DNA of 64,000 nt from positions 64,726 to 128,725 of the forward strand of contig CANQQA010000003.1 of the NCBI GenBank assembly GCA_947625885.1, in the 5' to 3' direction. Under the pieces are notes generated by a model. It searched no databases and was not told where the DNA came from. It saw nothing but the letters and a program-made list of their open reading frames with translations. This stretch comes from an uncultured Bacteroidales bacterium. GTDB lineage: Bacteria > Bacteroidota > Bacteroidia > Bacteroidales > UBA11471. Positions 15,830 through 33,783 of this stretch are shown one piece after another. Every line of letters begins with the position of its first letter. Position 1 is the first letter of the stretch. The position numbers and the translations under genes are program-made.

Positions 15830-15875
15830 ACAAATGTAATGCAATTGCATAAATGGTTCAAAAAAAATAAATATT

Positions 15876-16268: not shown

Positions 16269-16281
16269 TTCTTGATACATT

Positions 16282-16773: not shown

Positions 16774-16805
16774 TAACTTTTTCCTATCTTTTTTTGTTAA
16801 GGTGT

Positions 16806-16823: not shown

Positions 16824-16858
16824 TCTTAACTTTGCGATTTCATCGCAAAACAGTAAAT

Positions 16859-17964: not shown

Positions 17965-18006
17965 GTGATAATTGTAACAAAATCAACCTAAAAAAGAGTA
18001 TTGACA

Positions 18007-18513
18007 ATGGCAAAGTTCAGTAAAAAAACGGTGGAAAAGATTGTTGGGCTTATCAAGTCCGACACATACACCATTGCCGAAATTTGCCGCCAAGTTGGAA
18101 TAACGCCGAAAACATACCATCAATGGGTGAACGACTACCCAGATTTTGCCGAAGCTATCGAAGATGCAAAGGACGAAAGAATGCAAACGATGGTGATTGA
18201 GGCGAAAAAATCCTTGATGAAAAAGATACAAGGTTATGATGTAACTGAAACAAAGGTTGTAACCATTCCCGGTACAAAAAAGGACGAAAATGGCAATCCG
18301 AAACCCATAATCAAGGAACAAACGACCAGCAAAAAGCACATTCAACCAGACACGGCGGCGATTATATTCGCATTGACTAATGGCGACCCAGAGCATTGGC
18401 GAAATAGACAATCAAACGAAATAACAGGCAAGGACGGTAAAGACTTGTTCGCTGGCAAAACAGATGAAGAATTGGACAATGAGATTGCAGAATTGAAGCG
18501 CAAATTGGAGTGA
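18007..18513 (+). CDS. terS: Terminase small subunit
   Basis: HTH YTIAEICRQVGITPKTYHQWVNDYPDFAEAIEDAKDE. Its stop overlaps the terL start (TGATG). The track start at 18001 is a TTG. Confidence 0.7.
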   Translation: MAKFSKKTVEKIVGLIKSDTYTIAEICRQVGITPKTYHQWVNDYPDFAEAIEDAKDERMQTMVIEAKKSLMKKIQGYDVTETKVVTIPGTKKDENGNPKPIIKEQTTSKKHIQPDTAAIIFALTNGDPEHWRNRQSNEITGKDGKDLFAGKTDEELDNEIAELKRKLE

Positions 18514-19982: not shown

Positions 19983-19999
19983 ATGTATCACTATAAAAC
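19982..19999 (+). promoter_or_regulatory. Recurrent phage motif copy (aatgtatcactataaaac)
   Basis: Identical to copy 1. It overlaps the terL stop and ends 7 nt before the ATG at 20007. Confidence 0.6.
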
Positions 20000-20006
20000 A
20001 GGTATT

Positions 20007-21467
20007 ATGACTATTAAAGAAATTTTCGGAAAGGCAACGGATAATGATGTGATTGCAGAATTAAAGCTCCACCGTTACACACCGCAGCCCGATGTGGAAG
20101 CCGCGAGAAAAGCGTTGAATCCGGAGTTACACGGCATCAACGACCCTATTACTCGACCAGACAAAAAAGTAAAGGTCGATTCGGATAATGATGCTGATTC
20201 GGCGCAACGGGTTATATCCGTCGATGGCGAATCGGTAAATTATAGAACCGAAAAGGTGGCAAGGGTTTCACTTGCCATTCAAAGGCTTATAATCAACCGT
20301 GCTGTATCGTTTTGCTTCGGCAATCCGCCAGAATATAATTCAACTCCTATCAACGATGTTGAAAGAAGCATTGTGAAAGCTGTTAATCACATTTTGTATG
20401 ACGTCAAAAGCAATTCTTTGAATCGCAAAATTGGGCGTTCAATATTTGGATTTAAGGAGTGTGCAGAGTATTGGTACACTGTTGATAAGGAACACACAAA
20501 ATATGGATTCAACGCAAAGCACAAATTGCGCTGCGCTATCTTTTCGCCCGAATTTGACGATAAACTTTACCCGTATTTTGATGAAACAGGTGATATGCTC
20601 GCTTTTTCGCGTGCATTTAGCCGTAAGATTTTGAAAAGCGCCATTGATTACTTTGAAACATTCACGGCAGATGAACATTGGTTGTGGGCAAATGGCGCAA
20701 ATGGTTATGAAGTCGTGCCCGGTTATCCAAAGCCTATTGCAATCGGTAAAATACCCGTTGTGTATGGCTATCAATCAAAGTTTGAAACCGAGGACGTGAA
20801 CAAATTGATTGACCGTCTGGAAACTCTTTTGTCAAATTTTGCAGACACAAATGATTATCATGCAAGTCCAAAGATTTTTGTTACCGGGCAAATTAATGGG
20901 TGGTCGAAAAAGGGCGAATCTGGCTCTGTAATTGAGGGCGAAGATGGTGCAACCATGCAATATGTATCTTGGCAATCCGCGCCGGAAGCTGTCAAGTTAG
21001 AGATTGAAACCCTGTTAAAGATGATTTATACAATCACACAAACGCCCGACATTTCTTTCGATTCTGTCAAGGGGCTTGGAGCAATAAGCGGTATTGCCTT
21101 GAAGCTGTTGTTTATGGACGCACATTTGAAAGTTCAGGATAAGCGCGAAATTTTCGATGAATATCTGCAACGTCGCGTGAACATCATTTTGGCATACATC
21201 GGGAAAATGAACACCGCTTGGGAAAAGGATTGTGAAAACATCGTGATTGAACCAGAACTTGTGCCGTATATGCTAACGAATGAACTTGACGACTTGAATT
21301 ATTGGCTTACCGCAAACGGAAACAAACCGGTTATTTCGCAAGAAGAATCTATTGAACGCGCCGGAATTTCTAAGGACGTGAACATGACGGTGCAGAAAAT
21401 AAAAGAGCAAACCGCAAGCGAAAATTCATTCATAATTGGAGAGCCTCAAATTGATGGTGATGCGTAA
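20007..21467 (+). CDS. Portal protein
   Basis: About 486 aa, immediately after terL, with size and position typical of SPP1-type portals. The track start at 19983 lies inside the motif. Confidence 0.7.
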   Translation: MTIKEIFGKATDNDVIAELKLHRYTPQPDVEAARKALNPELHGINDPITRPDKKVKVDSDNDADSAQRVISVDGESVNYRTEKVARVSLAIQRLIINRAVSFCFGNPPEYNSTPINDVERSIVKAVNHILYDVKSNSLNRKIGRSIFGFKECAEYWYTVDKEHTKYGFNAKHKLRCAIFSPEFDDKLYPYFDETGDMLAFSRAFSRKILKSAIDYFETFTADEHWLWANGANGYEVVPGYPKPIAIGKIPVVYGYQSKFETEDVNKLIDRLETLLSNFADTNDYHASPKIFVTGQINGWSKKGESGSVIEGEDGATMQYVSWQSAPEAVKLEIETLLKMIYTITQTPDISFDSVKGLGAISGIALKLLFMDAHLKVQDKREIFDEYLQRRVNIILAYIGKMNTAWEKDCENIVIEPELVPYMLTNELDDLNYWLTANGNKPVISQEESIERAGISKDVNMTVQKIKEQTASENSFIIGEPQIDGDA

Positions 21468-21738
21468 GGTATTGTTTGCAATCTTGATGGTGCTTTGTCT
21501 TGCAAGCTGCAAGGAAAACACGATAAGTGGGTATGTTGTTGGGAAAGAATTTGTACCGGCACATACTTACACCCAATACAATGTAGTGTTGAAGATGCCG
21601 CAAACAAGGCGTGTTCCAGACCAATTTATTATGTGGGTGGCTGATTCGTGCGGTGTTCGCCGTTGCCACGTTGATAAAACCACGTTTACCCGAATTAAAA
21701 ACGGTCAGTTCGTAACTTATGGCAAAAAAGAAGATTGA
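21454..21738 (+). CDS. Small lipoprotein
   Basis: MVMRKVLFAILMVLCLASCKEN is a signal peptide plus lipobox Cys. Confidence 0.5.
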   Translation: MVMRKVLFAILMVLCLASCKENTISGYVVGKEFVPAHTYTQYNVVLKMPQTRRVPDQFIMWVADSCGVRRCHVDKTTFTRIKNGQFVTYGKKED

Positions 21739-21922
21739 AGAAATATCTAAGTTGAGGTGTCGTGATTGTGCCAATTCATACGATTGGAGCGACAGGGCAC
21801 ATGATGGACATTTGATATTGTGCCGATGTAAACTTGATAAAAAAACGGAATACGGAAAATGGTGCAAGATGTTGTCCGACTACGTTTGTGAACACTTCAA
21901 GATTCGACCGAAAGGGAATTGA
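21719..21922 (+). CDS. Small Cys-rich (zinc-ribbon-like) protein
   Basis: 67 aa with CRDC...CRC...C pairs. Confidence 0.4.
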   Translation: MAKKKIEEISKLRCRDCANSYDWSDRAHDGHLILCRCKLDKKTEYGKWCKMLSDYVCEHFKIRPKGN

Positions 21923-21925
21923 TTT

Positions 21926-24328
21926 ATGGCAAAGAAAAGGCAGAAAACAACGCGGTTTTCGATTCAATCATACGATTCCGCACATTACAGGCAAACGGAG
22001 CAATACACCAAAGCTGTTGAAGCCTTATTTGACCGAGCCACCGCCGAAGTTTCAAAGGCAGCGGCAAAAGGCACATACAACCCAGATAAGCCATTTTCTT
22101 TTGATGATTACCCCGGTGTAAAGTCCGTTATGCAAGATGTAACCGAACAACTTGCAAGCAGAATGATAACGGTTATTGAAACGGGTTCAAAAAAACAGTG
22201 GTTGTTCGCTTGCAAGAAGAACGATGGCTTTATTGATTCGATAATGGAAACGTCAAAGTTGAGCAAGGCGATGTTGCAAAAGATGCAAGACCGAAACTTG
22301 GACGCATTACAGACATTCCAGCGGCGCAAGGTCGATGGAATGAACCTTTCGCAAAGGGTTTGGAAATATGTCGGTCAATACAAAGAGCAACTGGAATCTG
22401 CCCTTGATGTTGGATTGGGCGATGGTCGAAGTGCCGACCAACTTTCACGTGATGTCCGGAAAAACCTCAAAGAACCGAACCGATTATTTCGCCGTGTGCG
22501 AGATAAACGCGGAAACCTTGTATTGTCGAAAGCCGCAAAAGCCTTTCACCCCGGACAGGGAGTTTACCGTTCGTCGTACAAGAATGCAATGCGTTTGACG
22601 CGCTCCGAAATAAACATGGCATATAGAGAAAGCGACTTTTTGCGCTGGCAATCACTTGATTTCGTTGTTGGCTTTGAGATACACCGAAGTAATCACGAAC
22701 CATTGTGTAAATGCGACATTTGCCAACAATTGGTCGGTCGTTACCCAAAGACATTCAAGTTCAAAGGGTGGCACCCGCAATGTATGTGTTATGCCGTGCC
22801 TATATTGATGGACGAAGAAACCTTTGATGAAAATGAATTGGGCAACCTCAAAGCGGCATTGCGAGGAACGCAATACAAGAAATTGGAAGCGAAGAATATA
22901 GTTTCCGATGTGCCAGATGGATTCAAAGCATGGGTAAAAGACCATATAGATGCGCAAAAGAAATGGGGCTCGACGCCTTATTTTATTAAAGACAATTTCA
23001 AAAATGGCAAGTTGTCCGATGGATTGAAGATTGCATTGCCAACCATTGAATCACCGATTGACCCGATACAACAACAACTTGATGCGTTAAATGTGCAAAT
23101 TGTCCAAGCAAGGCAACAAGCCGCCAAGTGGGGATTATCCGTACAACTCACAATGCTTAACAAGTACGTTTCAGAAAGGGATATTGCTGGCGTGCGTATA
23201 AGAATAGCAACCATTCAATCAAAAGCGAAGATGATGGAACAAGCCGATGCGGATATTCGCCGCAAGTGTTCCGAATGGGGGTTGTCCACATACATTCTCG
23301 ATGAAGCAATGCGCAATCCAGATACAAAGAACATTTTGGAAAAAATGACTGAATTGGAAAATAGGTGCTTCAACGCTGAAAAAGAATACAATCAATTCAT
23401 TGCAAATGCCACAAATGCAATACAGGAAGCGCGAAAATACAAAATTGATGTTTTGGAAATGTTTAATTATGTTGCCACAATTACGAGCGATAAGCGCGAA
23501 TGGGTGATGGGCAAAAGTTCGTATAAACAGGCATTGCAAGATTTGTTGGATAAGATACGCAAAAGTGGTGGTGGCGATTCACCACACAAAGCAATACGAA
23601 CATCATACACAGCAAGTTCCGAACTTGACGACACTTTCAAGGTTATCAACTCCGAGTTTACCACCGAAAAGTGGTTTGAACACGGCGATTGTGTTTTGTC
23701 CGCAACGAAGAAAAGTGATGTAAACGGTTATACGTATATGGACGGGCGAATTTTCTTGAAAACTGAAAGACTTGAATACGTAAAATCCGCAATGGCTAAA
23801 ATCGGAAGTGGCAAATCAAATGAAATCACCTTTGAAGAAGCTGATGCAATGGCAACATTTTGGCACGAAATCACACACAACCGTAATGTTCCGGGCAATA
23901 TGAAAACAACAAAAGCGCAAACCAAAGTTATGGAAATGATGAACGAGTTTGTGGCACGAAAGACATTGCCGGAATTTTACGCAAAATTGGGTTGTGCCAA
24001 TACGCCACACCCGGAGTTCATCAACAATCGAAATTCAACGGGTTACAACCGCCGTGTGCTTATGTATGATTTTGTCATTTCAAAACTTGGTCTTGACCCG
24101 GCAAAAGTTCTTGCATCGGCGCGAAAGTATCTTTTTAGATTGGATTACACACAACAGGAAACAACCGCAATACAAGCATTGTTGGACGGTGGAATGGATA
24201 AGTTCATTCGTTTAGATGGTAAACCGATAGGAAAAGCCCAAATGAAAAAGATTGTTGCTTTATGCCGTAGTGGTGCAGGTGAGCAAACAATTGAAAACTA
24301 TATGCGAAAAGAGGGCATTATAAAATAA
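21926..24328 (+). CDS. MuF/SPP1 gp7-like head protein with a long C-terminal extension carrying HExxH
   Basis: MuF-type region RSEINMAYRESDFLRWQ...CKCDICQQL...WHPQCMCYAVPI lies in the first ~300 aa. A coiled coil follows, then FWHEITHN (HEITH at 23864-23878) with a downstream EMMNEF. Confidence 0.75.
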   Translation: MAKKRQKTTRFSIQSYDSAHYRQTEQYTKAVEALFDRATAEVSKAAAKGTYNPDKPFSFDDYPGVKSVMQDVTEQLASRMITVIETGSKKQWLFACKKNDGFIDSIMETSKLSKAMLQKMQDRNLDALQTFQRRKVDGMNLSQRVWKYVGQYKEQLESALDVGLGDGRSADQLSRDVRKNLKEPNRLFRRVRDKRGNLVLSKAAKAFHPGQGVYRSSYKNAMRLTRSEINMAYRESDFLRWQSLDFVVGFEIHRSNHEPLCKCDICQQLVGRYPKTFKFKGWHPQCMCYAVPILMDEETFDENELGNLKAALRGTQYKKLEAKNIVSDVPDGFKAWVKDHIDAQKKWGSTPYFIKDNFKNGKLSDGLKIALPTIESPIDPIQQQLDALNVQIVQARQQAAKWGLSVQLTMLNKYVSERDIAGVRIRIATIQSKAKMMEQADADIRRKCSEWGLSTYILDEAMRNPDTKNILEKMTELENRCFNAEKEYNQFIANATNAIQEARKYKIDVLEMFNYVATITSDKREWVMGKSSYKQALQDLLDKIRKSGGGDSPHKAIRTSYTASSELDDTFKVINSEFTTEKWFEHGDCVLSATKKSDVNGYTYMDGRIFLKTERLEYVKSAMAKIGSGKSNEITFEEADAMATFWHEITHNRNVPGNMKTTKAQTKVMEMMNEFVARKTLPEFYAKLGCANTPHPEFINNRNSTGYNRRVLMYDFVISKLGLDPAKVLASARKYLFRLDYTQQETTAIQALLDGGMDKFIRLDGKPIGKAQMKKIVALCRSGAGEQTIENYMRKEGIIK

Positions 24329-24329
24329 T

Positions 24330-24359
24330 AAAGTGGGGGGCTTCACGCCCCCCCACTTT
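24330..24359. terminator. Bidirectional hairpin terminator between convergent genes
   Basis: aaagtgggggg (24330-24340) pairs with ccccccacttt (24349-24359) around an 8-nt loop. It sits between the + gene ending at 24328 and the - gene ending at 24358. Confidence 0.7.
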
Positions 24360-24588
24360 ATTCGTTGTTCTCCGCTTCAAGTTCTTTTTTGTATTGCTTT
24401 TCGACGGCTTGCAACAAATCTTTGTTGTTAGTCAATTCCGCAAACTCAATGAGTACGTGAGCATTATAAAGCGGATATTCTTTCAAATCGCGAAAGAAAT
24501 CTTCTTTCGACACGACCAAATCTGCAATTATTTGTTCATCGTTGCAGAAATCAAAGATGGTCTTTTCTTTCAAATTGGTGTAGTCCAT
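24358..24588 (-). CDS. Hypothetical protein (inverted cassette)
   Basis: 76-aa acidic ORF, last gene of the minus-strand cassette. Confidence 0.45.
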   Translation of the reverse strand: MDYTNLKEKTIFDFCNDEQIIADLVVSKEDFFRDLKEYPLYNAHVLIEFAELTNNKDLLQAVEKQYKKELEAENNE

Positions 24589-24594
24589 AATTGT

Positions 24595-24822
24595 TTATTT
24601 TGATGGTTTACGATTCGTTTTCTTTCGGTGGATTGTTCCCCTGTAAATGATGCACTTGTTGTTGCGATATGGCTTTGATTCGGTTATTCCATACGCCCAC
24701 AATCGAGATTTCGACACGCCCAATTCAAGATGATTGAATGTGTCGAAAATCGCGGCAATAGAACCGAAATAATGGTGGTTGTCGTCGCCGAAGCAAACGT
24801 GATATATGGTTGTTCCGTTCAT
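24595..24822 (-). CDS. Hypothetical protein (inverted cassette)
   Basis: 75-aa ORF with a basic C-terminus, tightly packed. Confidence 0.45.
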   Translation of the reverse strand: MNGTTIYHVCFGDDNHHYFGSIAAIFDTFNHLELGVSKSRLWAYGITESKPYRNNKCIIYRGTIHRKKTNRKPSK

Positions 24823-24890
24823 ATTACAATTGCATTTCTTATGGCATCAATTGGTGATTTTGCTGCATTTGGCGAAATCTACCCCTTTGG

Positions 24891-25163
24891 TCATAACACA
24901 TATATTTTTCGTTTACTCATTTCATCGCGGAATTTACTATACGCCGCGTTGTATGATTCGCCGCTGGATTCTGCCAACATGATAAACCCAGCTCGACCGT
25001 CGTTTTTGATGATGATTTTTCCGATAACTCTGACTGATTCAAAATATCCGCCGGCACACTTCATTACCGCTTCTATCTGTTCGCTCGCTGCAAATCTGTT
25101 TTCCGCGTTTATTGCTACTTTTATCTGATTTTTCATATTGCTGCCTCTTTCTTTATTTTCCAT
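24891..25163 (-). CDS. Hypothetical protein (inverted cassette)
   Basis: The MENKERG start at 25163 is preferred because it lies 5 nt after the upstream stop. The track start is 25193. Confidence 0.4.
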   Translation of the reverse strand: MENKERGSNMKNQIKVAINAENRFAASEQIEAVMKCAGGYFESVRVIGKIIIKNDGRAGFIMLAESSGESYNAAYSKFRDEMSKRKIYVL

Positions 25164-25167
25164 TGTC

Positions 25168-25719
25168 TTATATATTAAAATCAAACCATTCACGGGGAGA
25201 ATTGAACGCAGCCTTTTTCACTTGCCGATAAAAAGCCTTATTCAATTTGCGTATCCTTGCCAAACATTCGTGTGGATTCCAACGGAAGTCTGGCATCATT
25301 TCGTTGTTCGCGGCATAAATACCGCCTTGTTTTGGTTCAAAATGTCCAAAGGCAACCAAGTTCCCATCTTTGATGAAAACAACTTCCTTGATGTGTTTGT
25401 TGAGCTTGTGGCGGTATGTTAAGGACGTGCAAGTGTTGTAATACTCAACAATCTTGTGTTGCCGTTCCATCGCTTCTTGCAGCTTGGTTGCCTTATTCTT
25501 TCGGAAGTCCCACATATTTTTGGCAACTTGATGCCGAAGTTCCGCTACATTGATAGGTTCGCTTCCGATTGCCATATCATACGGAAATGTGCCGTTGGCA
25601 AACATTCTTACAGCACGAACAAAGTTCTCTTTGTCCACCACTTTGTCGTGAAGTTCATTCACGAAATCAACACGTAAACCATACTTGGCTGCGAGTGCTT
25701 CAAAATTCATCTTTTCCAT
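25168..25719 (-). CDS. Hypothetical protein (inverted cassette)
   Basis: 183-aa ORF. No motif recognised. Confidence 0.5.
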   Translation of the reverse strand: MEKMNFEALAAKYGLRVDFVNELHDKVVDKENFVRAVRMFANGTFPYDMAIGSEPINVAELRHQVAKNMWDFRKNKATKLQEAMERQHKIVEYYNTCTSLTYRHKLNKHIKEVVFIKDGNLVAFGHFEPKQGGIYAANNEMMPDFRWNPHECLARIRKLNKAFYRQVKKAAFNSPREWFDFNI

Positions 25720-25734
25720 GCAAATGTAACAAAT

Positions 25735-25989
25735 TTATTTAATATAACTATTATTTTTTTGTTGTTTAGTTTTATTCGGTGTGATTAAAAGTGTATGGGC
25801 TGCCAAACTTAATGCACGGGCATTGAAGTCGTGCTTCAAGGCAATTTCTTCTTGCCCGTCATTGTCGGCTTTTGTTGATGTCAAAAGTTCCATGTCCATT
25901 ATCCGTGCTATTGTCTTGAACATTCGTTTTGATGCTTCATACAATCGGCGATTATATTCGTCGTCAGTCATTGTGTTGATTGCTTTCAT
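25735..25989 (-). CDS. Hypothetical protein (inverted cassette)
   Basis: 84-aa ORF. No motif recognised. Confidence 0.45.
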   Translation of the reverse strand: MKAINTMTDDEYNRRLYEASKRMFKTIARIMDMELLTSTKADNDGQEEIALKHDFNARALSLAAHTLLITPNKTKQQKNNSYIK

Positions 25990-25998
25990 ATTCGCTGT

Positions 25999-26952
25999 TT
26001 AATTGTTATTTATACCAATAATATACAAGCAATTCTTTTCCGGAAGCAGTTTGTTTACACCATCAAGGGTTGCGCCTGTTGTCAAGATGTCATCAAACAC
26101 AATGATGTTATGTTCTTTAATATCAACGTGCAATGCGAATTGTGGGTTGATGCGTTGTCTTGTCTTTGCGGTTATTGCATCATTGTAAAATGGGATTCCC
26201 AGCTTTTTAGCAATCACCAAACAAACGCTTTCGGCAAAGTTCGTTTCCTTGTGGCGGCGTTTGGGCGTCGTGAGCAACGCCCAATCATCATTGTGGCGCA
26301 ATCCAACCACACGGCGAATAACATTCAAGGCGGCATCTGCAAACAATCCAACATTGGAGAAATCCGCCTTAATGGTGGATAATGGATAACCTTGTTCGCT
26401 TTTCTTGAAGCAGGAAATGAAAGAAAAATCACGTTTTGGGTGCCAGCCGATGCAATCTTTCAAATCGCACACGCTTTCTTGGGAGTTGGCGGCAGAGTTC
26501 CACCCTGCACGTTTCTTTTCTTGCGGTTGTTCCTCAAATTGCGGTTCCTCAAATTGCGAAATGTCAATTGCCCATTCTTGGAGTTCTACGGCGTCCCACC
26601 CATCAAGAAGTGCTTTGTAATCCCAATCACCGAAATCCCCATTGTCCTTGATGATATAGTTTCGGAGTTTTTCAACTGGCGTTTCCTTTGGGATAATGAT
26701 GCAAGGAACATCATCGAATCCAAGCCGCCTCAATGCTTGTAAACGCATATTTCCGCCGACAGTGATATACTTGCCATCTGCAATCGGATAAACGAGCAGC
26801 CCACGCAATTGCAACATTTCGGGGTCTTGTTTAATGCTTTCAACCAGCTTATCAAGTTTTGCGGGGTTTGTGATACGCGGATTCGGGGGCAAGCCCGGAA
26901 CTTGCCCCGTGTTGTTCTCAATCCGCATGATTGGAATGTTTGTTGTTATCAT
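25999..26952 (-). CDS. ParB-N domain fused to a ComF-like phosphoribosyltransferase domain
   Basis: N-terminus LLVYPIADGKYITVGGNMRLQALRRLGFDDVPCIII is ParB/Srx type. The C-terminal PRPP-binding loop is HNIIVFDDILTTGATLDGV. An acidic linker lies between them. Confidence 0.75.
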   Translation of the reverse strand: MITTNIPIMRIENNTGQVPGLPPNPRITNPAKLDKLVESIKQDPEMLQLRGLLVYPIADGKYITVGGNMRLQALRRLGFDDVPCIIIPKETPVEKLRNYIIKDNGDFGDWDYKALLDGWDAVELQEWAIDISQFEEPQFEEQPQEKKRAGWNSAANSQESVCDLKDCIGWHPKRDFSFISCFKKSEQGYPLSTIKADFSNVGLFADAALNVIRRVVGLRHNDDWALLTTPKRRHKETNFAESVCLVIAKKLGIPFYNDAITAKTRQRINPQFALHVDIKEHNIIVFDDILTTGATLDGVNKLLPEKNCLYIIGINNN

Positions 26953-27293
26953 ATCGAAATAATTAAAGTTTTTACGCCTTTCTTGTTTGCATAATCAATG
27001 GTGTATTTCGTGCCTTTTGATGTGCCATTCCAAAATGCAACGACCATATCGGAATTATCCACAATTTCACGGTTGCGTATGAATGTTGCCCCACGCCCGT
27101 TCTTTGCATAATCTGGGCGAAATTCAATGAGTTCAAGCTCATGTTGCCTTGCATATTGTGCAGCGAGAGAATCAATGCCCTTTGCCCCGCCGGAAATAAT
27201 TGCATCACACGAATGCAAGGTTATGTGCCTTTCAAGTTCTTCTGCAAAAGAAATATTGCCAAGTTCACGTGAACCAACGATTGCGATTTTCAT
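26949..27293 (-). CDS. DprA-like SLOG domain protein (DUF2493-like)
   Basis: MKIAIVGSRE...IISGGAKGIDSLAAQYA...GATFIRNREIV...VVAFWNGTSKGT matches the stand-alone SLOG/DUF2493 pattern. It overlaps the ParB-PRTase start. Confidence 0.7.
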   Translation of the reverse strand: MKIAIVGSRELGNISFAEELERHITLHSCDAIISGGAKGIDSLAAQYARQHELELIEFRPDYAKNGRGATFIRNREIVDNSDMVVAFWNGTSKGTKYTIDYANKKGVKTLIISI

Positions 27294-27301
27294 TGTTGTG
27301 C

Positions 27302-27319
27302 GTTTTATAGTAATACATT
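27302..27319 (-). promoter_or_regulatory. Recurrent phage motif copy (aatgtattactataaaac on the minus strand)
   Basis: Ends 8 nt upstream of the minus-strand ATG at 27293 (SLOG gene). Confidence 0.55.
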
Positions 27320-27327
27320 TTTTTTGA

Positions 27328-27597
27328 CTAAAATAATTTATATGTAGTTGTGAATGAACATTCTTCTATATCACCACGTGTTTCATACTTACCCGTTTCC
27401 ACAAGTTTTGTAATGGCTGCAATGGGGATTAATACGCCCAATCCTTTACCTTTGGATTGGAACACCCATACAGATGTTCCGGATTTAACCATGTAACCGA
27501 TTTTGAAATAATCGTTTGTCCCATTAAACCCATTATAATATGAAATATTCTTACCCATAATGGCTTGTTTGATATATTGCATTGTAATTGCTGCCAT
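27328..27597 (-). CDS. Hypothetical protein (inverted cassette)
   Basis: 89-aa ORF. Confidence 0.45.
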   Translation of the reverse strand: MAAITMQYIKQAIMGKNISYYNGFNGTNDYFKIGYMVKSGTSVWVFQSKGKGLGVLIPIAAITKLVETGKYETRGDIEECSFTTTYKLF

Positions 27598-27608
27598 CGT
27601 AGAACGTT

Positions 27609-27944
27609 TTAATCATTTGAAATTGGTTTGGTTGGAATGCTGTTCAAAGCCGTAATGATGTCATTTTTATATGACCACCTTTTGGCTAAAATAATGCCGC
27701 GAAAGGCATTTGATTTGACAATGCCCCATTTCTCCACAACTGAAAATTCGTTGTTGTCAAAAGGGTTGTCATATACTCTCCATTTAGCGAATCTTTCAAA
27801 GTGTGTTACCCATACAGATGAGCCGGAAAGGCGGTTTGAATGCCTTTGCCCGCATAAACGTATTGATGATGTCAATTCAACACACAGTTTTGTTGGTGTT
27901 GATTCTATGATTTTGAATTTTTGGATTATTGCTTGTTTCTTCAT
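27609..27944 (-). CDS. Hypothetical protein (inverted cassette)
   Basis: 111-aa ORF. Confidence 0.45.
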   Translation of the reverse strand: MKKQAIIQKFKIIESTPTKLCVELTSSIRLCGQRHSNRLSGSSVWVTHFERFAKWRVYDNPFDNNEFSVVEKWGIVKSNAFRGIILAKRWSYKNDIITALNSIPTKPISND

Positions 27945-27992
27945 TGTTGCGATTTTTTTTGATTGGTTGTTTCGTTTTTAGAATGCCCAACA

Positions 27993-28220
27993 TTATTCCC
28001 AGTATGCGACTGCGTAGACCTCTTTATTGCTATCTTCATCAATCACGTATATAGCGTATGTTTCTCCGCTCCAACTTTCAAGCTCTCTCGGACACGGGAA
28101 AGCCGAACAATCGGCGCTTCGGTATTCTATGCGGCAATTGCCGCCATAATAATTTACAAAATCGTTTACCATTTCTTCTGCCTCGCTGTATGTGTAGGCA
28201 CTTTCTCTTTTTGTTTTCAT
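27993..28220 (-). CDS. Hypothetical protein (first gene of the inverted cassette)
   Basis: 75-aa acidic ORF. Confidence 0.45.
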   Translation of the reverse strand: MKTKRESAYTYSEAEEMVNDFVNYYGGNCRIEYRSADCSAFPCPRELESWSGETYAIYVIDEDSNKEVYAVAYWE

Positions 28221-28254
28221 TTTTCTTTTTGTTTTAAGCTGTTATTGTTAGCGT

Positions 28255-28272
28255 GTTTTATAGTAACACACC
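28255..28272 (-). promoter_or_regulatory. Recurrent phage motif copy (ggtgtgttactataaaac on the minus strand)
   Basis: Ends 34 nt upstream of the minus-strand ATG at 28220. Confidence 0.5.
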
Positions 28273-28376
28273 GCAAATATAATAGTTATATTTAATATAA
28301 CAAACTTTTTCGGCAAAAAATGCACTTGCAATGCAAAATGTTGATAAGTTAAGCACAAATAGACTTGCATATATCA

Positions 28377-28394
28377 TTTGTATCACTATAAAAC
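28377..28394 (+). promoter_or_regulatory. Recurrent phage motif copy (tttgtatcactataaaac)
   Basis: Ends 44 nt upstream of the ATG at 28439. It lies between the candidate -33 and -7 boxes. Confidence 0.55.
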
Positions 28395-28438
28395 ATTATA
28401 TTTTTGTGATGATTTGTTGAACATAAATTTTCAAAAAA

Positions 28439-29131
28439 ATGAAAGAAACGATTTTGGCACTACTGATTGCGAAGTTTTCAGGCGTGCGAAAGGACGGATT
28501 GGCGGTGCTGGCACGTTCCCTTGCGTTACAGTGCGCAACCGAAGATGATGCGAAAGCCCTTGTTGAAAAAATCACCGATGCGCAAGTGAATGAATACGTC
28601 AAGGACTATCGCACCGAAGTGGATAAAGAAGTGTCCAACAGTAACAAGACATTTGAATCGAACTTGCGAAAGAAGTACAACTTCGTTGAGCGGCAAACGG
28701 AACCCGGCAACGAGCCACAACGCGAAGATATGGACAGCGTCCGCAAGATTGTGAAAGAGGCTGTTGCGGAAGCGGTAACGCCACTTCAAGAAAGATTGTC
28801 AAGTTACGAACAAGGCAACATTGAGAAAACAAGGCTTCAAACATTGAACGAAAAATTGGCTGATTGCAAGGACGAAACTTTCAAGGCGCAAACATTGAAA
28901 GATTTTTCCCGCATGAAGTTCGATACGGACAATGACTTCAATGAATACTTGAACGAAAAGGTTGCGGACATTGCAACGGCAAATCAAAATGTTGCCAATG
29001 CAAAATTGAGTAATTCTGGCGGAATACCGCTGTTTTCACAAAAAGAGGAAAGCGGTGTGTCCAAAGGTGTTGCCGATTTCTTGGCAAACCAAAAAACCGA
29101 TAACAACCCGTTATCTGGTAAAGAACTCTAA
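28439..29131 (+). CDS. Probable capsid scaffolding protein
   Basis: 230 aa, acidic and coiled-coil rich, two genes upstream of the major capsid gene. Confidence 0.5.
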   Translation: MKETILALLIAKFSGVRKDGLAVLARSLALQCATEDDAKALVEKITDAQVNEYVKDYRTEVDKEVSNSNKTFESNLRKKYNFVERQTEPGNEPQREDMDSVRKIVKEAVAEAVTPLQERLSSYEQGNIEKTRLQTLNEKLADCKDETFKAQTLKDFSRMKFDTDNDFNEYLNEKVADIATANQNVANAKLSNSGGIPLFSQKEESGVSKGVADFLANQKTDNNPLSGKEL

Positions 29132-29154
29132 GTAAAACAAAAAAAGTCAAAACA

Positions 29155-29721
29155 ATGTCATTGATAATCAAAAGAAAAAAAGACAATCGCGTTGTGAAGT
29201 GTATTCTTCACCGCGTGGCGGACATACCCGGCGGCGTAACTGTATCGGTTGCCAACTTGGGTGGGTCGGCATTGTTTGAGGGTACACCTATTGGCAAGGG
29301 TTCAAACGGTCTTTATACGGTATGTAAGACCGCACAGGTAATCACCGAAGCAGCGGCAGAAGCGACAACTTATGAGGTGGCAAAAGGACACCACTTCAAG
29401 GTAGGCGACAGATTTGCGACTGCGGCTTGTAACGGTCAAGTGATTACAGCCATTGACAAAACAGACGCCTCAAAAGATGTTATAACCGTCGAAGCAACGC
29501 TTGGCGCAAAGGTTAATGCCGGCACTTGCGCATTTGAATCAAGTGGAGCCAACAAAACACTGAAAGTTACACCCGTGGCAATCGCTGGTACAAACTCCGA
29601 TGTGGAAAATGGCGACAACTTGTTTGTTGATGCGTGGGTTATCGGTGTCGTAAATGCCGCAACAACCCCGCCCGTATCTGATGCCCACAAAGCGGCATTA
29701 AAGACAATCGCTTATGTTTAA
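29155..29721 (+). CDS. Head-associated protein (decoration-like position)
   Basis: 188 aa, Gly/Ala/Thr-rich, between the scaffold and major capsid genes. Function inferred from position only. Confidence 0.35.
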   Translation: MSLIIKRKKDNRVVKCILHRVADIPGGVTVSVANLGGSALFEGTPIGKGSNGLYTVCKTAQVITEAAAEATTYEVAKGHHFKVGDRFATAACNGQVITAIDKTDASKDVITVEATLGAKVNAGTCAFESSGANKTLKVTPVAIAGTNSDVENGDNLFVDAWVIGVVNAATTPPVSDAHKAALKTIAYV

Positions 29722-29741
29722 CCCATAAAAAATAAACCAAT

Positions 29742-30845
29742 ATGCAAAAATCATTAATGGTTGGGTTGAATGAAAAGGACATGGAAGCCGTAATTCACTC
29801 TTACGACCTCAAAGATTACTATTATCCAACCCTTTTCCCCCTCAAAGAAACAAATTTCTTGACGTGGAAAATGCTTGAAGCGCAATCGGGCTTGAAGATT
29901 GCAGCAGACCTTGTTTCAAGGGGTGCGACAATTCCTAAAAAGACACGTGAAGCGATTTCGCGCATTCAAGGTGATATACCCAAAATATCAATCGCGCGAG
30001 AGAAAAACGAAGATGAATTGACCGAATACGACATAATGGTGGCAATGTCGAGTACTAACCCCGACTTGAAAGCCCTTGTCGAATTTTGGGCAGAAGATAC
30101 CAAGTTTTGTTGGGACGGCGTGGCAGCCCGTGCGGAATGGATTGCCTTACGGCAAATTTCGCTCGGACAGGTCAGATTCACCAATTCAAACAACGCCGCG
30201 GTCGTTACGGAATACAACGTCGATTATTTGATTCCGTCGGAACAGAAAATTGGCGTGTCCACGTCATACACAAGCGGGACTGGCGCAAAACCCCTTTCGG
30301 TTGATATTCCGAAAGCACTCAAACTTGGTAAAAAGTTGGGCGCATCGTACAAATTCGCATTTATGAACGTGGACACTTTCGAGAAGTTTGCTTCGCAAGA
30401 AGAAGTCTTGAAAAAATGTTCGTCTTACATTCAGAATGTATCTGGTGTTCAAGATGCACCCGACCTTACAACCGTGAACGCCTATCTTGCCAAGAAGAAA
30501 GAGCTTTACCGCGGCTTGCAGATTATTGTAATCGACCAAGAGATTACGATTGAACTTGCCGATGGTTCGCGCCAAACCTCAAATCCATTCGAGGACGATG
30601 TAATTCTTTTCAGCGAGAGCAAGGTTCTTGGAAGCACATATTGGAAAAAACCTATTGATGCAAAGAAGATGCCCGGCAGCGTCGCCGATAAGGTTATGCA
30701 CGGACACACTTTGGTCAAGAAGTATTCCGAAGAATCGCCGGTTAAAGAAGTTACCGAGGGAATTGCAAACCTTTTCCCAGCATGGAATCTTGCCGGTCGA
30801 AGTGTGTTGATGCAGACAAATGACACCGGCTGGAACAAGAACTAA
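29742..30845 (+). CDS. Major capsid protein
   Basis: 367 aa, with size and position typical of HK97-fold / major capsid protein E-like proteins. Followed by a strong terminator. Confidence 0.75.
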   Translation: MQKSLMVGLNEKDMEAVIHSYDLKDYYYPTLFPLKETNFLTWKMLEAQSGLKIAADLVSRGATIPKKTREAISRIQGDIPKISIAREKNEDELTEYDIMVAMSSTNPDLKALVEFWAEDTKFCWDGVAARAEWIALRQISLGQVRFTNSNNAAVVTEYNVDYLIPSEQKIGVSTSYTSGTGAKPLSVDIPKALKLGKKLGASYKFAFMNVDTFEKFASQEEVLKKCSSYIQNVSGVQDAPDLTTVNAYLAKKKELYRGLQIIVIDQEITIELADGSRQTSNPFEDDVILFSESKVLGSTYWKKPIDAKKMPGSVADKVMHGHTLVKKYSEESPVKEVTEGIANLFPAWNLAGRSVLMQTNDTGWNKN

Positions 30846-30850
30846 TATTT

Positions 30851-30887
30851 GACCTTTGGGGCAATTGCTGCGCCCCAAAGGTCTTTT
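30851..30887 (+). terminator. Rho-independent terminator after the major capsid gene
   Basis: gacctttggggc (30851-30862) pairs with gccccaaaggtc (30872-30883) and is followed by tttt. Confidence 0.7.
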
Positions 30888-30902
30888 GCAAGACAATATG
30901 TT

Positions 30903-31217
30903 ATGACGAACAAAGAGTATTTGACCAAATCATTAAACGGGCTTAACGTAAGCGAAGATGATATTGATATTATCTTGGTGAAAGGTGGGCTTGGTGCCGA
31001 TGATACGGTGGACACAAAATCTTGCGATGTATCTGTTTACAATCGAATGTCGGTTGTTCTAAAAGGTATGTTGCAAAACGTGTCCGAGGGTGGTTATTCC
31101 ATTTCGTGGAATATGGAAGCCGTAAAAATGTATTATTCGGCACTATGTAATGAATTGGGAAAAGAAAACGTGTTGGTCGCACGCCCTAAAATTCGTAACC
31201 GTTCAAATATTTGGTGA
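30903..31217 (+). CDS. Head-tail connector-region protein
   Basis: MTNKEYL start. Called from position only. Confidence 0.4.
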   Translation: MTNKEYLTKSLNGLNVSEDDIDIILVKGGLGADDTVDTKSCDVSVYNRMSVVLKGMLQNVSEGGYSISWNMEAVKMYYSALCNELGKENVLVARPKIRNRSNIW

Positions 31218-31219
31218 TT

Positions 31220-31555
31220 ATGGAATTGGTGAAACAATACCCGCATTTTCTTTTCATCGAAGAAGCTACCGAATCCGTGCAAGATTCGCAAGGTAATTGG
31301 ACGGAATGCACACAATTGCGCAAATTCATTTCAATGTGTCGCGAGGAATCCGACGGGAAAGGTACCGAATACCAAGTTGCAGGTGGTGAATACATCAAGG
31401 CGACATCTGTTATTCAGTTGCCAATCACTTGCCCAAAGGTGGACAAAGGCACAAAGGTGATAGTTGCAAATGACCATGATTGTAACGACATACGCATTGC
31501 CGGTATATGTTTGAACTTTGACCCAGCGCAGCTTCATTCAAGATTATGGGTATAA
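31220..31555 (+). CDS. Head-tail adaptor-region protein
   Basis: The ATG at 31220 (MELVKQ) is preferred over the TTG at 31211. Called from position only. Confidence 0.4.
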   Translation: MELVKQYPHFLFIEEATESVQDSQGNWTECTQLRKFISMCREESDGKGTEYQVAGGEYIKATSVIQLPITCPKVDKGTKVIVANDHDCNDIRIAGICLNFDPAQLHSRLWV

Positions 31556-32013
31556 AAGCGAACTTCACCAAAGACGATGTAAGAAAACAATTCGATGCTT
31601 TTCTTGACATGGTCGAGCAAAAGCAAATCGAGAGGTTGCAAAGGCTTGGTGAAATGTGCTTGATAGAAGCACGCAACAACAAAGGTTATATGGTTCAGAC
31701 GGGGGCATTGCTTTCGTCCACTGGTTATGAAGTCTTTGTTGATGGTGTTGCAATACATTCACAATTTGATGTGGCAAGCGGCGCGGAAAGCGAAGCAGCG
31801 GCAAGGGGTATAAAAACTGGGCAATCAATTGCCGAAAAGGTTGGCAAGGAAACTACGGGTGTTGCCCTTGTTGTGGTTGCTGGTATGAATTACGCGGCTT
31901 ATGTCGAAGCAAAAGGGTATAACGTATTGTCGAGTGCAGAACATCTTGCAGAGCGGGAATTACCCCGAATGCTGGAAAAACTGATTACAAACATCAAACG
32001 TGCGGCGGAATAA
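31546..32013 (+). CDS. Head closure / neck-region protein
   Basis: 155 aa, with overlapping starts and stops in the neck-gene run. Confidence 0.4.
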   Translation: MGIKANFTKDDVRKQFDAFLDMVEQKQIERLQRLGEMCLIEARNNKGYMVQTGALLSSTGYEVFVDGVAIHSQFDVASGAESEAAARGIKTGQSIAEKVGKETTGVALVVVAGMNYAAYVEAKGYNVLSSAEHLAERELPRMLEKLITNIKRAAE

Positions 32014-32417
32014 TGAAAACCACATTTGACACTGATGGAATCTTGTTTGACTTGTTGAATGGAAAGATGACCAACAAAGGTGGTTGTTATGTCGGTGATG
32101 ATAGACCAGAAAATTCAACAAGTGAAGATGTTGTTGTAAATACTATTGATTTGACGCAAGATTGTTTGCCTCAAATTGGTACGTCCAACATCAACATTTA
32201 TGTTCAAGACACAAGCAAGAAAATCAACGGTAAAATGCAGATTTCAGCAAATCGCACACGATTGAAATCTTTGGCAAAAGAAGCATTAGAACTTGTAAGA
32301 AATGCGAATCTTGAAGGCTTAATGATTATTCCCGGCAACATGACAATTATGTACGAGCCAAATACGAAGCAACATTTCGCCAACATTCGCATTGATTGGA
32401 ACATTCAAATCGAATAA
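32013..32417 (+). CDS. Tail completion-region protein
   Basis: 134 aa. Called from position only. Confidence 0.4.
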   Translation: MKTTFDTDGILFDLLNGKMTNKGGCYVGDDRPENSTSEDVVVNTIDLTQDCLPQIGTSNINIYVQDTSKKINGKMQISANRTRLKSLAKEALELVRNANLEGLMIIPGNMTIMYEPNTKQHFANIRIDWNIQIE

Positions 32418-32433
32418 TTTTAATTTATATAGT

Positions 32434-32934
32434 ATGGACAGAACATCATTAATCACGCTTGGGCTTTGCGAAATCAAAGTCGGTGCTGCCGCACCCGATG
32501 GAACAATGCCCGCAGAAATGAACAAGATTGGCAAGACTTATCAAGACACTTGCAAGATTGCGCAAGATGCCGCAGAGGTAACGGAGCATTACGAAGAGGG
32601 TATGGCAGCTCCGGAAGTTCGCAAAAAGAAACGAAAAATCCCCCGTCTTACATTCTCCATTATGGACGCAAATGTGGACGACCTTGTTTCATACGTTGGC
32701 GGTGAAAAACTTGAAGATGAATCTTGGGGCTATAACGGCGACGAAGTAGTTGCAAACAAGGCAATCCGTGTGATTACCGAAAAGGGGCTTGACTTCGACA
32801 TTCCGAATGGCGACATTGAAGCGGTAATCAACGCCGATATGTCGTCAAAGGGAATTTTCCTTGTGGATTTCACTGTTACCCCAATGGCTGTGTCGAAAGG
32901 AAAAGCCTTGAAAGGTGTACCCAAGAAAGGCTAA
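32434..32934 (+). CDS. Probable major tail protein
   Basis: 166 aa from the ATG at 32434. It is the last gene before the chaperone and tape measure genes and is followed by a terminator hairpin. Confidence 0.5.
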   Translation: MDRTSLITLGLCEIKVGAAAPDGTMPAEMNKIGKTYQDTCKIAQDAAEVTEHYEEGMAAPEVRKKKRKIPRLTFSIMDANVDDLVSYVGGEKLEDESWGYNGDEVVANKAIRVITEKGLDFDIPNGDIEAVINADMSSKGIFLVDFTVTPMAVSKGKALKGVPKKG

Positions 32935-32953
32935 TCGGGGTGCATTAACGTAA

Positions 32954-32988
32954 GAAGCCCCCGGAATGTTTCAGTTTTCGGGGGCTTC
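32954..32988 (+). terminator. Hairpin terminator/attenuator after the major tail gene
   Basis: gaagcccccg (32954-32963) pairs with cgggggcttc (32979-32988). Confidence 0.6.
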
Positions 32989-33009
32989 AATTATTTAATA
33001 TCAACTGGT

Positions 33010-33579
33010 ATGGACGACGATAAGAAGAAACTTGAACAAGAACGTGCGGAGCTTAACACATTGATTGGTAAGGGTGTGTCATTTGAGGTAAAAGACACCG
33101 AATTTGATGTGGAACGGCGGTTCTTTGGAATTGTTAAGAAATACAAGCCACGTGAGGTAACAAGAACATTCAAAATTGAAGAAATGACGCTTGCCACACT
33201 TGACCGTATTTCAGTAGAAACAATCGAATTTGCAATTGATGAAAAGGCAATGAAATCGGCAGATTCAATGCAACGTGCAAGAAGTCTTGCCCGTGAACAT
33301 TCCATTCGTTGTGCAAGGGTTGTTGCTATCGCAGTTCTTGGTGAAGATAGATTGGTTCCTATTCACGGTAAAGGGGTAACAAGGTGGGTTGAAGATACAA
33401 AACGGCTTGACGAATTAACGGCATTGTTCGCAAGAAAAATAAAACCATCGGTACTATACAAACTTTACGTCATTGTGAATGCAATGAGCAATTTGGGGGA
33501 TTTTATGAACTCTATTCGATTGATGCAACAAGAAAGAACCACAATGCCGATTCGGATAGAGAAAACCAACAAGGATTAA
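33010..33579 (+). CDS. Tail assembly chaperone (G-like)
   Basis: 189 aa, immediately upstream of the tape measure gene. An overlapping -1-frame extension is present. Confidence 0.6.
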   Translation: MDDDKKKLEQERAELNTLIGKGVSFEVKDTEFDVERRFFGIVKKYKPREVTRTFKIEEMTLATLDRISVETIEFAIDEKAMKSADSMQRARSLAREHSIRCARVVAIAVLGEDRLVPIHGKGVTRWVEDTKRLDELTALFARKIKPSVLYKLYVIVNAMSNLGDFMNSIRLMQQERTTMPIRIEKTNKD

Positions 33580-33782
33580 ACAGTCCTTATGGTCGTCGAG
33601 GGGCTATATGTCAGCACTTCGGGTGGACTTATGATTACTTGTTACATGGCATTACGTGGTCGGTTGTTCAACGTATGATGATTGATGCCCCAAGTTATGA
33701 TTTAGACAATGGGGTTGAAGAAATCAAATTAACAGAGAACAACGGGGAACAAATATTGAATTACGTAAACAGTATGATGTAA
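33411..33782 (+). other. ATG-less -1-frame extension of the chaperone gene (GT-like programmed frameshift product)
   Basis: The -1 frame relative to 33010..33579 is open from 33411 to a TAA at 33780-33782, one nt before the tape measure ATG. The 33580-33782 gap is otherwise non-coding. An A-rich run gaaaaataaaac lies at 33434-33445. Confidence 0.5.
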
Positions 33783-33783
33783 T

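Follow-up and report, generated by a model that had tools for sequence, protein, structure and literature searches.

The subject of this analysis is a pair of adjacent genes in a temperate gut phage, carried by a 64,000-nucleotide stretch of DNA from an uncultured Bacteroidales bacterium (the window: positions 64,726 to 128,725 of contig CANQQA010000003.1, assembly GCA_947625885.1). One gene codes for a 317-aa protein in which a ParB/sulfiredoxin (Srx)-type N-terminal domain is joined to a phosphoribosyltransferase (PRTase) domain with an intact phosphoribosyl pyrophosphate (PRPP) loop, and the other codes for a 114-aa mini-SLOG protein. The SLOG gene is linked to the ParB-PRTase gene whatever the gene arrangement, so that their pairing is not due to chance, and it tracks the ParB fusion rather than stand-alone PRTases. 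It is tentatively proposed that the pair could be a DNA-tethered, PRPP-dependent conflict effector with a partner binding to single-stranded DNA (ssDNA) or nucleotides, i.e., a phage-borne "PRTase + DprA-like SLOG" module, a reading that we prefer without placing it beyond an even chance. The parts of the pair are the following:

26949..27293, minus strand: mini SLOG of the YAcAr/DUF2493 family with a DprA-like Rossmann core, 114 aa (Pfam, AlphaFold, Foldseek)
26949..26952, minus strand: stop/start overlap of the SLOG and ParB-PRTase genes, ATGA, 4 nt (sequence)
26563..26952, minus strand: ParB/sulfiredoxin-type N-domain, residues 1-130 (profiles, Foldseek, Spo0J alignment)
26479..26562, minus strand: acidic low-complexity linker, residues 131-158 (sequence; predicted local distance difference test, pLDDT, below 50 at residues 132-157)
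25999..26478, minus strand: PRTase domain, residues 159-317 and stop codon (profiles, AlphaFold, Foldseek)

The two open reading frames (ORFs), 25999..26952 and 26949..27293, had been picked out earlier by a sequence-only reading of the same DNA, and the coordinates, the 4-nt overlap and the motifs that it quoted are all present: GGNMRLQALRRLG corresponds to residues 66-78 and IIVFDDILTTGATLDG to residues 282-297 of the 317-aa translation, and the 114-aa translation contains GGAKGID, RNREIV and FWNGTSKGT. A start giving 309 aa was picked by a gene caller in two near-identical contigs. The 317-aa start, and with it the overlap, is taken as real, because the first 8 residues of this form are conserved in homologues without the internal Met and residues 3-7 form a confident beta-strand in the AlphaFold model.

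The linkage of the two genes was surveyed by an iterated hidden Markov model (HMM) scan of 164 fetched loci (numbered here with the prefix L), in which the SLOG gene directly adjoins the ParB-PRTase gene in four arrangements, in lineages down to 28% identity:

SLOG upstream, with the ATGA overlap: the window's lineage (L001-L018, L170)
SLOG convergent with ParB-PRTase, 3' ends overlapping: L019-L023, L085, L088
SLOG downstream, co-directional: Bacteroidales (L026-L035, L037)
SLOG downstream of ParB-PRTase: Clostridia, at 28-29% identity (L125, L126)

The ATGA overlap is kept in the closest lineage and absent from the others, so that the translational coupling proposed by the sequence-only reading stands for the lineage of the window phage, but not for lineages in which the genes are convergent or in the reverse order. 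The functional link between the two genes, for which that reading had suggested a neighbourhood search, is borne out by this recurrent adjacency and by an association test at the level of 60%-identity clusters: seven clusters have the fusion with SLOG and four the fusion without it, whereas a solo PRTase is accompanied by SLOG in two clusters and lacks it in 12 (Fisher p=0.017). Both solo cases with SLOG lie near the start of a contig; the PRTase ORF of L086 extends toward the edge to within 11 nt and could be a truncated fusion, and L049 has a frameshifted PRTase match. In phages whose large terminase subunits (TerL) are 62% identical, one and the same slot next to the small terminase subunit (TerS) reads either SDR-PRT-TerS or SDR-ParB-PRT-SLOG-TerS (SDR being a gene for a short-chain dehydrogenase/reductase) and, therefore, the ParB-N domain and SLOG were gained or lost together.

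It is hardly credible that the genes just happen to be neighbours, unrelated to each other, in an accessory region that varies, and that their pairing has no functional meaning. Each family is also found alone (solo PRTases, and SLOG without PRTase) and the rest of the gene cassette in which they lie is variable, as this explanation would predict, but the adjacency survives inversion, changes of order and different phyla, its association with the ParB fusion is significant at the cluster level, and there is independent precedent for such couples in ShosTA, PsyrTA and the YpsA-PRTase pairs.

Among 1.84 billion representatives, the PRTase core defines a family of 157 clusters at 50% identity (E<=1e-30) and has only 649 matches at E<=0.001, so that it stands well apart from other PRTases. 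Two forms predominate among its members, which measure 170-230 aa when solo and 290-340 aa when the ParB-N domain is present. The great majority of the hosts are Bacteroidales (Prevotellaceae, Muribaculaceae, Bacteroides), and some are Clostridia. None of the 50,697 INPHARED records of cultured phages contains the fusion, the ParB-N part alone having matches there. The family constitutes a natural experiment, in which the PRTase core is found solo or ParB-fused, with or without SLOG and with or without an SDR gene, and the modularity of PRTase, ParB and SLOG argues that the PRTase chemistry is exercised at DNA. Prophages of human and animal gut Bacteroidales carry the family in abundance, and for this reason it could have a bearing on how phages compete with one another there. 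Solo PRTases of the commonest type (about 219 aa; a Muribaculaceae contig, L081 5218..9439, is an example) lie between ClpP-like prohead protease/capsid genes and the terminase, adjoining conserved genes of 192-207 aa and about 242 aa, with an ArdA anti-restriction gene close by.

The C-terminal domain of the 317-aa protein adopts the type I PRTase fold and has both the DDxxTTG(T/A)T PRPP loop, here D287-D288-ILTTGAT (nt 26068..26094), and an elongated, basic loop of the pyrophosphate (PPi) type (P230-x-RRHK-x-x-NF), in addition to an N-terminal beta-hairpin. Residues C162, K195, F204, P230, R232, R233, H234, R267, E280, D287, D288, T291, G293 and T295 are invariant, and the PRPP loop and the basic loop are unchanged across 28-35 diverse homologues. 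The protein is inferred to bind PRPP and probably to turn it over. The "ComF type" label attached to this domain by the sequence-only reading is modestly supported. In Foldseek, ComFC from H. pylori (7p0h) comes first among PRTases (7e-6, generic PRTases being at about 3e-4), and comF and GntX are the top NCBIfam matches of the domain; these sequence scores, however, are far below the cut-offs (comF TIGR00201 reaches 23.9 bits against 233.55, over residues 261-307 only), generic PRTases outrank ComFC (E=0.82) in a sequence-profile search of the PDB, and the Pfam Pribosyltran match is itself below the gathering threshold (E=2e-3). There is no 4-Cys zinc finger either, since C162 is the only cysteine invariant among 35 homologues and the others are variable. 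What stands is the PRTase fold, the PRPP loop and ComFC as top structure, and not the ComF label as such; orthology with ComFC is excluded by the missing zinc finger and by scores so far under the cut-off.

AlphaFold models the 317-aa protein as two domains (pLDDT 83.5). The ParB/sulfiredoxin nature of the N-domain, also claimed by the sequence-only reading, was confirmed by several profiles and by the fold, in spite of a sub-threshold Pfam ParB_N score (21.1 against a gathering cut-off of 26.3, E=3e-4): the protein matches PHROG ParB, nuclease and ParB-methyltransferase families, PHROG 498 included, with E-values down to 1e-36; in PDB sequence searches, the N-domain has a family-profile match to H. 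pylori Spo0J (5e-7) and also matches sulfiredoxin; and in Foldseek its fold matches Noc, CTP-bound ParB, sulfiredoxin and SbnI/SerK with E-values around 1e-6. The motifs NPR (residues 24-26), GGNMR (66-70) and KDN (102-104) align with box I, GERR and the EN of box III of Spo0J. Compared with the ParB boxes (GERRxRA, which binds nucleotides, and ENxxR in box III), GGNMRLxA and KDNxxF keep one Arg and the acidic-Asn pair, while the Glu and the first Arg are replaced, and some homologues carry AGHTR or GNKST in place of GGNMR. At about residue 130 the N-domain gives way to the linker and then to the PRTase, and there is neither a centromere-binding helix-turn-helix (HTH) domain nor a dimerisation domain; no ParA partner turned up in the searches of the cassette, none of which was dedicated to ParA. 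The acidic linker was correctly recognised by the sequence-only reading and is predicted to be disordered (residues 132-157); its sequence and length differ among homologues. Profiles and folds, therefore, uphold the C-terminal domain as a PRTase and the N-terminal one as ParB-like, the two identities on which that reading depended.

The ParB-N module is interchanged between methyltransferases (MTases) and PRTases. Compared with the ParB-N6/N4 DNA methyltransferase encoded next to the PRTase in L023, the window protein shows 46.6% identity in the N-domain, and the motifs GGNMR and KDNxxFGxxD are common to the two. The N-domain subfamily of phage ParB-DNA methyltransferase fusions is thus the same as in the window protein, and tandem paralogues occur in the same loci, whereas the C-terminal domain is an N6/N4 methyltransferase in those fusions and a PRTase in the window protein. 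In L120 and L122, ParB and PRT are separate adjacent genes. These loci (5246..9373) contain five consecutive genes coding for ParB, PRTase, ParB, ParB and a ParB-domain protein of about 450 aa, with a stop/start overlap between ParB and PRT, and represent a "split" version of the fusion with a local expansion of ParB paralogues.

The 114-aa protein belongs to the YAcAr family of Pfam (PF10686; 45.5 bits against a gathering cut-off of 28.2, E=6.5e-12), and it also matches DNA_processg_A (PF02481; 34.7 bits against 29.6, E=1.3e-8), although only over positions 46-99 of the 212 of that profile. Its conserved motifs, GSR (residues 7-9), GGAxGxD (35-41), RN (73-74) and WxGxSxGT (88-95), are retained by the partner SLOGs of all lineages, and its homologues are named "SLOG family protein" or "DUF2493" in the databases. 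The AlphaFold model, built with database homologues, is a five-stranded Rossmann core (pLDDT 95), whose top three Foldseek matches are the DprA proteins of H. pylori and S. pneumoniae and ShosA of E. coli (8zva), with template modelling (TM) scores of about 0.72-0.80 on the query. The designation as DprA-like SLOG/DUF2493 is, therefore, upheld by Pfam and by the fold, but the protein is a minimal Rossmann module and no DprA orthologue (25 bits against a cut-off of 191 for TIGR00732); DprA proper has a full Rossmann domain, as a rule accompanied by SAM and DML1 domains. Enzymes of the LOG type, which are phosphoribohydrolases, have the motif PGGxGTxxE with a catalytic Glu. No conserved acidic residue is found three positions past the GT in the partner SLOGs, which have T, I, M or C there, and so the mini-SLOG is unlikely to be a phosphoribohydrolase; the idea that it could be a LOG-like "eraser" hydrolase removing a phosphoribosyl adduct is likewise unsupported.

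The comparison with ComFC and DprA that was drawn by the sequence-only reading is a reasonable one, since these are the best structural matches of the PRTase domain and of the small protein, and it leads to a different explanation, in which the pair would handle the phage's own DNA. ParB-PRTase would bind and protect (ss)DNA that is entering the cell, being replicated or about to be packaged, PRPP or a nucleotide serving solely as a ligand for regulation, and the mini-DprA would hand the DNA to a recombinase, with possible delivery in the virion or late synthesis and action at DNA entry or packaging. ComFC, with which the window PRTase shares the sheet-extending N-terminal beta-hairpin, binds ssDNA and PRPP, can dispense with its PRPP site in the cytoplasmic step, and interacts physically with DprA in two species (PMC9005727). 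In at least three phage groups, moreover, the PRTase gene is persistently found next to TerS/TerL, portal, MuF, protease and capsid genes, and the window phage encodes a recombinase of the RecT type, a possible client of such a mediator. We nevertheless regard this explanation as doubtful. The family has no zinc finger, membrane link or ComEC/ComFA partner, the strict conservation of the catalytic DD pair and of the basic loop suggests catalysis over mere ligand sensing, the window genes run antisense to the late operon, only the core of DprA is represented in the mini-SLOG, and most of the PRTase-bearing phages have neither ParB-N nor SLOG.

The neighbours of the PRTase gene in other phages have been taken into account for another alternative. 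In 49 of the 164 loci, with solo as well as ParB-fused PRTases, a gene coding for an SDR protein similar to NAD-dependent epimerases/dehydratases adjoins the PRTase gene at its 5' end or overlaps it there (examples are L047 5199..5993 and L085 5083..5985). Such a neighbour is suggestive of a chemistry of sugars or nucleotides; no SDR gene is present in the window. In Bacteroides-type phages, a gene coding for a 305-aa protein without Pfam match precedes the SDR gene. Several other lineages have ParB-MTase paralogues in tandem, a SAM synthetase and a C5-MTase in the neighbourhood, and a radical-SAM gene lies near the PRTase gene in L016. All these genes, together with the interchange of ParB-N between MTase and PRTase, would fit a nucleotide- or DNA-modification pathway. 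The PRTase would join PRPP to a base-like acceptor to form an unusual nucleotide, or would work on DNA itself. The SDR, radical-SAM-like and MTase neighbours would process the product further, ParB-N would direct these reactions to DNA and the SLOG would bind or process the nucleotide, so that the phage DNA is shielded from restriction. The slot just before the terminase, occupied by the PRTase gene in several phages of the family, often holds DNA-modifying genes in phages. Such a pathway is nonetheless unlikely: the window lacks the SDR gene, no base-biosynthesis genes are recognisable in the cassette, the mini-SLOG has no conserved LOG Glu, the acceptor is not inferable, and the sets of neighbours vary by lineage, which speaks against a fixed pathway.

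The mini-SLOG has solitary homologues as well, in replication modules of phages and on bacterial chromosomes. A Ruminococcaceae chromosome (L168/L169, 3663..5338), for instance, has a 55%-identical mini-SLOG between asd and spoIIIA genes, where it adjoins a divergent gene for an XRE-type HTH protein and precedes a gene for a 309-aa acyltransferase-like protein, with no PRTase, and so the mini-SLOG works in other contexts too; the SLOG and the 309-aa gene were considered as a free-standing two-gene island and this was discarded, the 309-aa product not being a ParB-PRTase. These solitary occurrences would be compatible with a counter-defence function, with the SLOG as a sponge or decoy for immune signals derived from nucleotides or ADP-ribose (ADPR), or as a mimic of a host DprA-like antitoxin, and with the PRTase restoring or diverting PRPP- or NAD-related pools that are drained by defences of the host. 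Phage YAcAr SLOG domains have been predicted to act in NAD+/ADPR signalling (PMC7824862), the SLOG domain of ThsA bound to 3'cADPR is, like DNPH1, a weaker structural match of the mini-SLOG, and host PRTase effectors deplete PRPP. This function is improbable, however, given that the best structural matches are the ssDNA-binding DprA and ShosA rather than ThsA, that SLOG co-varies with a DNA-type ParB domain, that the cassette searches found no NAD-pathway genes nearby and that the existence of ShosTA-like systems in Bacteroidales hosts is unsupported.

The window contains an integrase gene (1562..2839, minus strand) and genes coding for a RecT-like protein, a DnaC-like loader and a DNA methyltransferase, in addition to the late genes for TerS/TerL (18001..19982), portal, MuF-like protein, scaffold and capsid. 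The GC content is about 0.39-0.43 at 1..49000 and 0.52-0.54 beyond, with a step near 48-49 kb, and the window appears to be a prophage joined to higher-GC host DNA from about 48-49 kb. The pair lies in an accessory cassette, delimited by the following features:

24327..24362, no strand assigned: terminator-like bidirectional hairpin with a perfect 14-bp stem (7 G-C pairs) and T-runs on both strands (sequence)
24358..28220, minus strand: ten-gene accessory cassette between the MuF-like head gene and the scaffold/capsid genes (ORFs, neighbourhood comparison)
28274..28304, minus strand: promoter motif TTTG-N19-TAtaTTTG upstream of the cassette (consensus match only)
28377..28406, plus strand: promoter motif toward the scaffold gene (consensus match only)

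The hairpin, placed where the MuF gene and the cassette converge, is likely to be a bidirectional terminator, judging from its sequence. At the other end, an AT-rich gap of 218 nt (28221..28438) contains two divergent promoter motifs of the Bacteroidetes type, whose consensus is known from Bacteroides promoter studies; TTTG-N17-21-TAnnTTTG has 6 matches in the window against 2.9 expected, two of them inside this gap. A scan for sigma-70 promoters, with 16 matches against 11.4 expected, gave no information. Phages with a major capsid protein 78-100% identical keep the cassette in its inverted orientation. The SLOG and ParB-PRTase pair, its conserved core, recurs in them along with a gene of 183 aa and one of 75 aa, and the remainder vary. 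The other eight cassette genes have no Pfam matches and a single PHROG match, and they are common to close relatives only, so that no third conserved component of the pair is shared beyond these.

Other genes of the window also deserve mention. A second ParB-like gene, stand-alone (17371..17964, plus strand, 197 aa, PHROG 620/498), lies directly upstream of TerS/TerL, and its product is only distantly related to the N-domain of the fusion. The early region at 5483..9403 (plus strand) encodes consecutively a 652-aa SbcC/AAA-like protein, a RecT-like annealing protein and a metallo-hydrolase, a complete recombination module that could in principle be served by a DprA-like mediator. The MuF-like head protein (21926..24328, plus strand, 800 aa) has no Pfam match, and its PHROG matches include a "Bxa ADP-ribosyl transferase" family over the MuF part; it has a C-terminal HExxH motif (FWHEITHN) with acidic residues after it, resembling the zincin metallopeptidase tail of "polyvalent" injected proteins.

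In the reading favoured here, a conflict effector tethered to DNA, the pair would be a phage-borne member of a class that comprises ComFC-DprA, ShosT-ShosA and RqlH-RqlI, built from different parts. The 317-aa PRTase would bind and probably consume PRPP, the ParB/Srx-type N-domain would hold or regulate it on DNA, as in the phage DNA methyltransferase fusions, and the mini-DprA would bind ssDNA or a nucleotide, act on the same DNA substrate and buffer or channel what the PRTase activity brings about. If ShosT, RqlH and the retron effectors are taken as a guide, this outcome could be a toxic disruption of nucleotide pools or of DNA metabolism, and the role would be the exclusion or abortive killing of superinfecting phages, or the takeover of host nucleotide and DNA metabolism, rather than virion assembly. 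A conflict-related role is considered the most likely because the pair sits in a cassette with promoter- and terminator-like signals of its own, antisense to the head genes.

Several observations weigh against this proposal. SLOG is absent from four fusion lineages and from about 100 solo PRTases (two loci excepted), and these many relatives keep the catalytic motif, which speaks against SLOG as an obligatory antitoxin; toxin-antitoxin genes, besides, are not usually convergent, as the two genes are in one lineage. Elsewhere, in most lineages, the PRTase gene lies co-directionally within the packaging/head module, directly upstream of TerS or beside protease and capsid genes, a position that suggests a late or virion-associated function and not a moron expressed in the lysogen. 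Nucleotide binding by the N-domain is uncertain because its motif is GGNMR and not GERR, and the mini-SLOG is devoid of the C-terminal half of the DprA Rossmann domain, which in DprA is the site of the RecA and dimer contacts. The sequence likeness to ShosT and ComF is mostly confined to the generic PRPP loop, and ShosT was found neither among the PDB sequence matches of the 317-aa protein nor among its top 50 fold matches.

A more radical version, which we consider a long shot, is that the PRTase, delivered by ParB, could phosphoribosylate DNA itself, at a base nitrogen or at an end, with the mini-DprA recognising the modified or exposed ssDNA. Such a reaction, if it took place, would add a new kind of DNA modification or lesion, comparable to the ADP-ribosylation of thymidine by DarT, and it could explain both the missing small-molecule acceptor of ShosT and the genotoxicity of ShosT and RqlH. 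PRTase-domain effectors increasingly appear as a recurrent weapon in phage-host conflict (ShosT, PsyrT/RqlH, the retron PRTases, ComFC-like proteins), and the modular variation within this family, whose proteins are compact and probably soluble (about 170 aa for the PRTase, 114 aa for the SLOG), makes the acceptor of the conflict PRTases experimentally approachable.

Among the known systems, ShosTA is a type IV toxin-antitoxin and abortive-infection system, in which the toxicity of ShosT requires the DD pair of the PRTase and PRPP binding, the acceptor not having been identified, and in which ShosA binds ssDNA and RecA, but not ShosT, ssDNA binding being required (PMC11961720, PMC12961424). 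According to a paper citing Rousset 2022, ShosTA is also carried by prophages and satellites. The window pair resembles it in having adjacent genes for a PRPP-binding PRTase and a DprA-like SLOG as a unit, neither PRTase having a known acceptor. The architectures, however, are different: ShosT (424 aa) has an N-terminal PPase-like hydrolase domain and a C-terminal PRTase of about 260 aa, and ShosA (more than 300 aa) has a SAM domain and a nine-stranded DprA Rossmann domain (PMC11961720, PMC12961424), whereas the window proteins have a ParB/Srx N-domain with a PRTase of about 160 aa and a five-stranded core of 114 aa, and SLOG is dispensable in many of the relatives. PADLOC gives paired matches, to ShosT and PsyrT for the 317-aa protein and to ShosA and PsyrA for the 114-aa one, but the ShosT HMM covers only residues 267-305 (profile positions 157-196 of 237) and the ShosA HMM aligns over positions 117-169 of 303, in keeping with a Foldseek TM score between the mini-SLOG and ShosA 8zva of 0.72 on the query and 0.29 on the target. 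Architecture and partial HMM coverage thus exclude the pair from ShosTA.

In PsyrTA/RqlHI, a RecQ-like helicase-PRTase is accompanied by a DprA-like restraint, RqlI curbing the genotoxic RqlH. The window pair is alike in that the PRTase is fused to a DNA-acting N-terminal module and accompanied by a DprA-like gene, and the same logic, a DNA-targeted PRTase restrained by a SLOG, is proposed for it. PsyrT, on the other hand, is an SF2 helicase of about 690 aa, whereas the window protein has a ParB/Srx domain, only 317 aa and a much smaller partner, and the context is a chromosomal defence island in one case and phage head and packaging genes in the other. The PsyrT HMM aligns to nearly all of the PRTase domain, residues 180-312 (E=6e-4; profile positions 533-677 of 689), and the PsyrA HMM matches the 114-aa protein with E=3e-7; membership is excluded, there being no helicase domain and the PsyrT match being restricted to the C-terminal PRTase part. 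The PRPP loop of ComFC, DDIITTGTT, resembles the DDILTTGAT of the window protein, and both have a long PPi loop, two N-terminal strands that extend the sheet and a DprA-type partner, but ComFC has a 4-Cys zinc finger and belongs to the competence machinery, while the phage-encoded PRTase is without either.

Further relatives of this logic are the PRTase effector of Retron-Eco11, which depletes PRPP (PMC12746101), and a branch of YpsA SLOG proteins that pairs with PRTases (PMC6459960); SLOG-PRTase couples and the PRTases of phages have both been treated by the Aravind group. The part of Iyer et al. 2017 (PMC5512222) that deals with phage and plasmid PRTases describes them as a distinct "enigmatic" clade, solo or MuF-fused; as far as this description allows a comparison, that clade and the window family are alike in being restricted to phages and prophages, in the DD motif, in a conserved Arg similar to that of ComFC and in their position among late/head genes next to MuF. 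The clade is described there as mainly from Proteobacteria and Verrucomicrobia, whereas the window family is from Bacteroidales and Clostridia, ParB-N-fused and linked to the mini-SLOG; ParB, PRTase and DprA all figure in that paper, whose passages on these PRTases do not describe the fusion. The combination of ParB-N, PRTase and mini-SLOG was not found in the literature searched, so that the statement of the sequence-only reading that no function had been assigned holds for this combination but not for the pairing of a PRTase with a DprA-like protein, which defines the anti-phage systems ShosTA and PsyrTA/RqlHI (PMC11961720, PMC12961424 and the Millman preprint). The principle of the pairing is already known from these systems, and the version of it assembled from a ParB-N domain and a mini-SLOG is, as far as searched, new.

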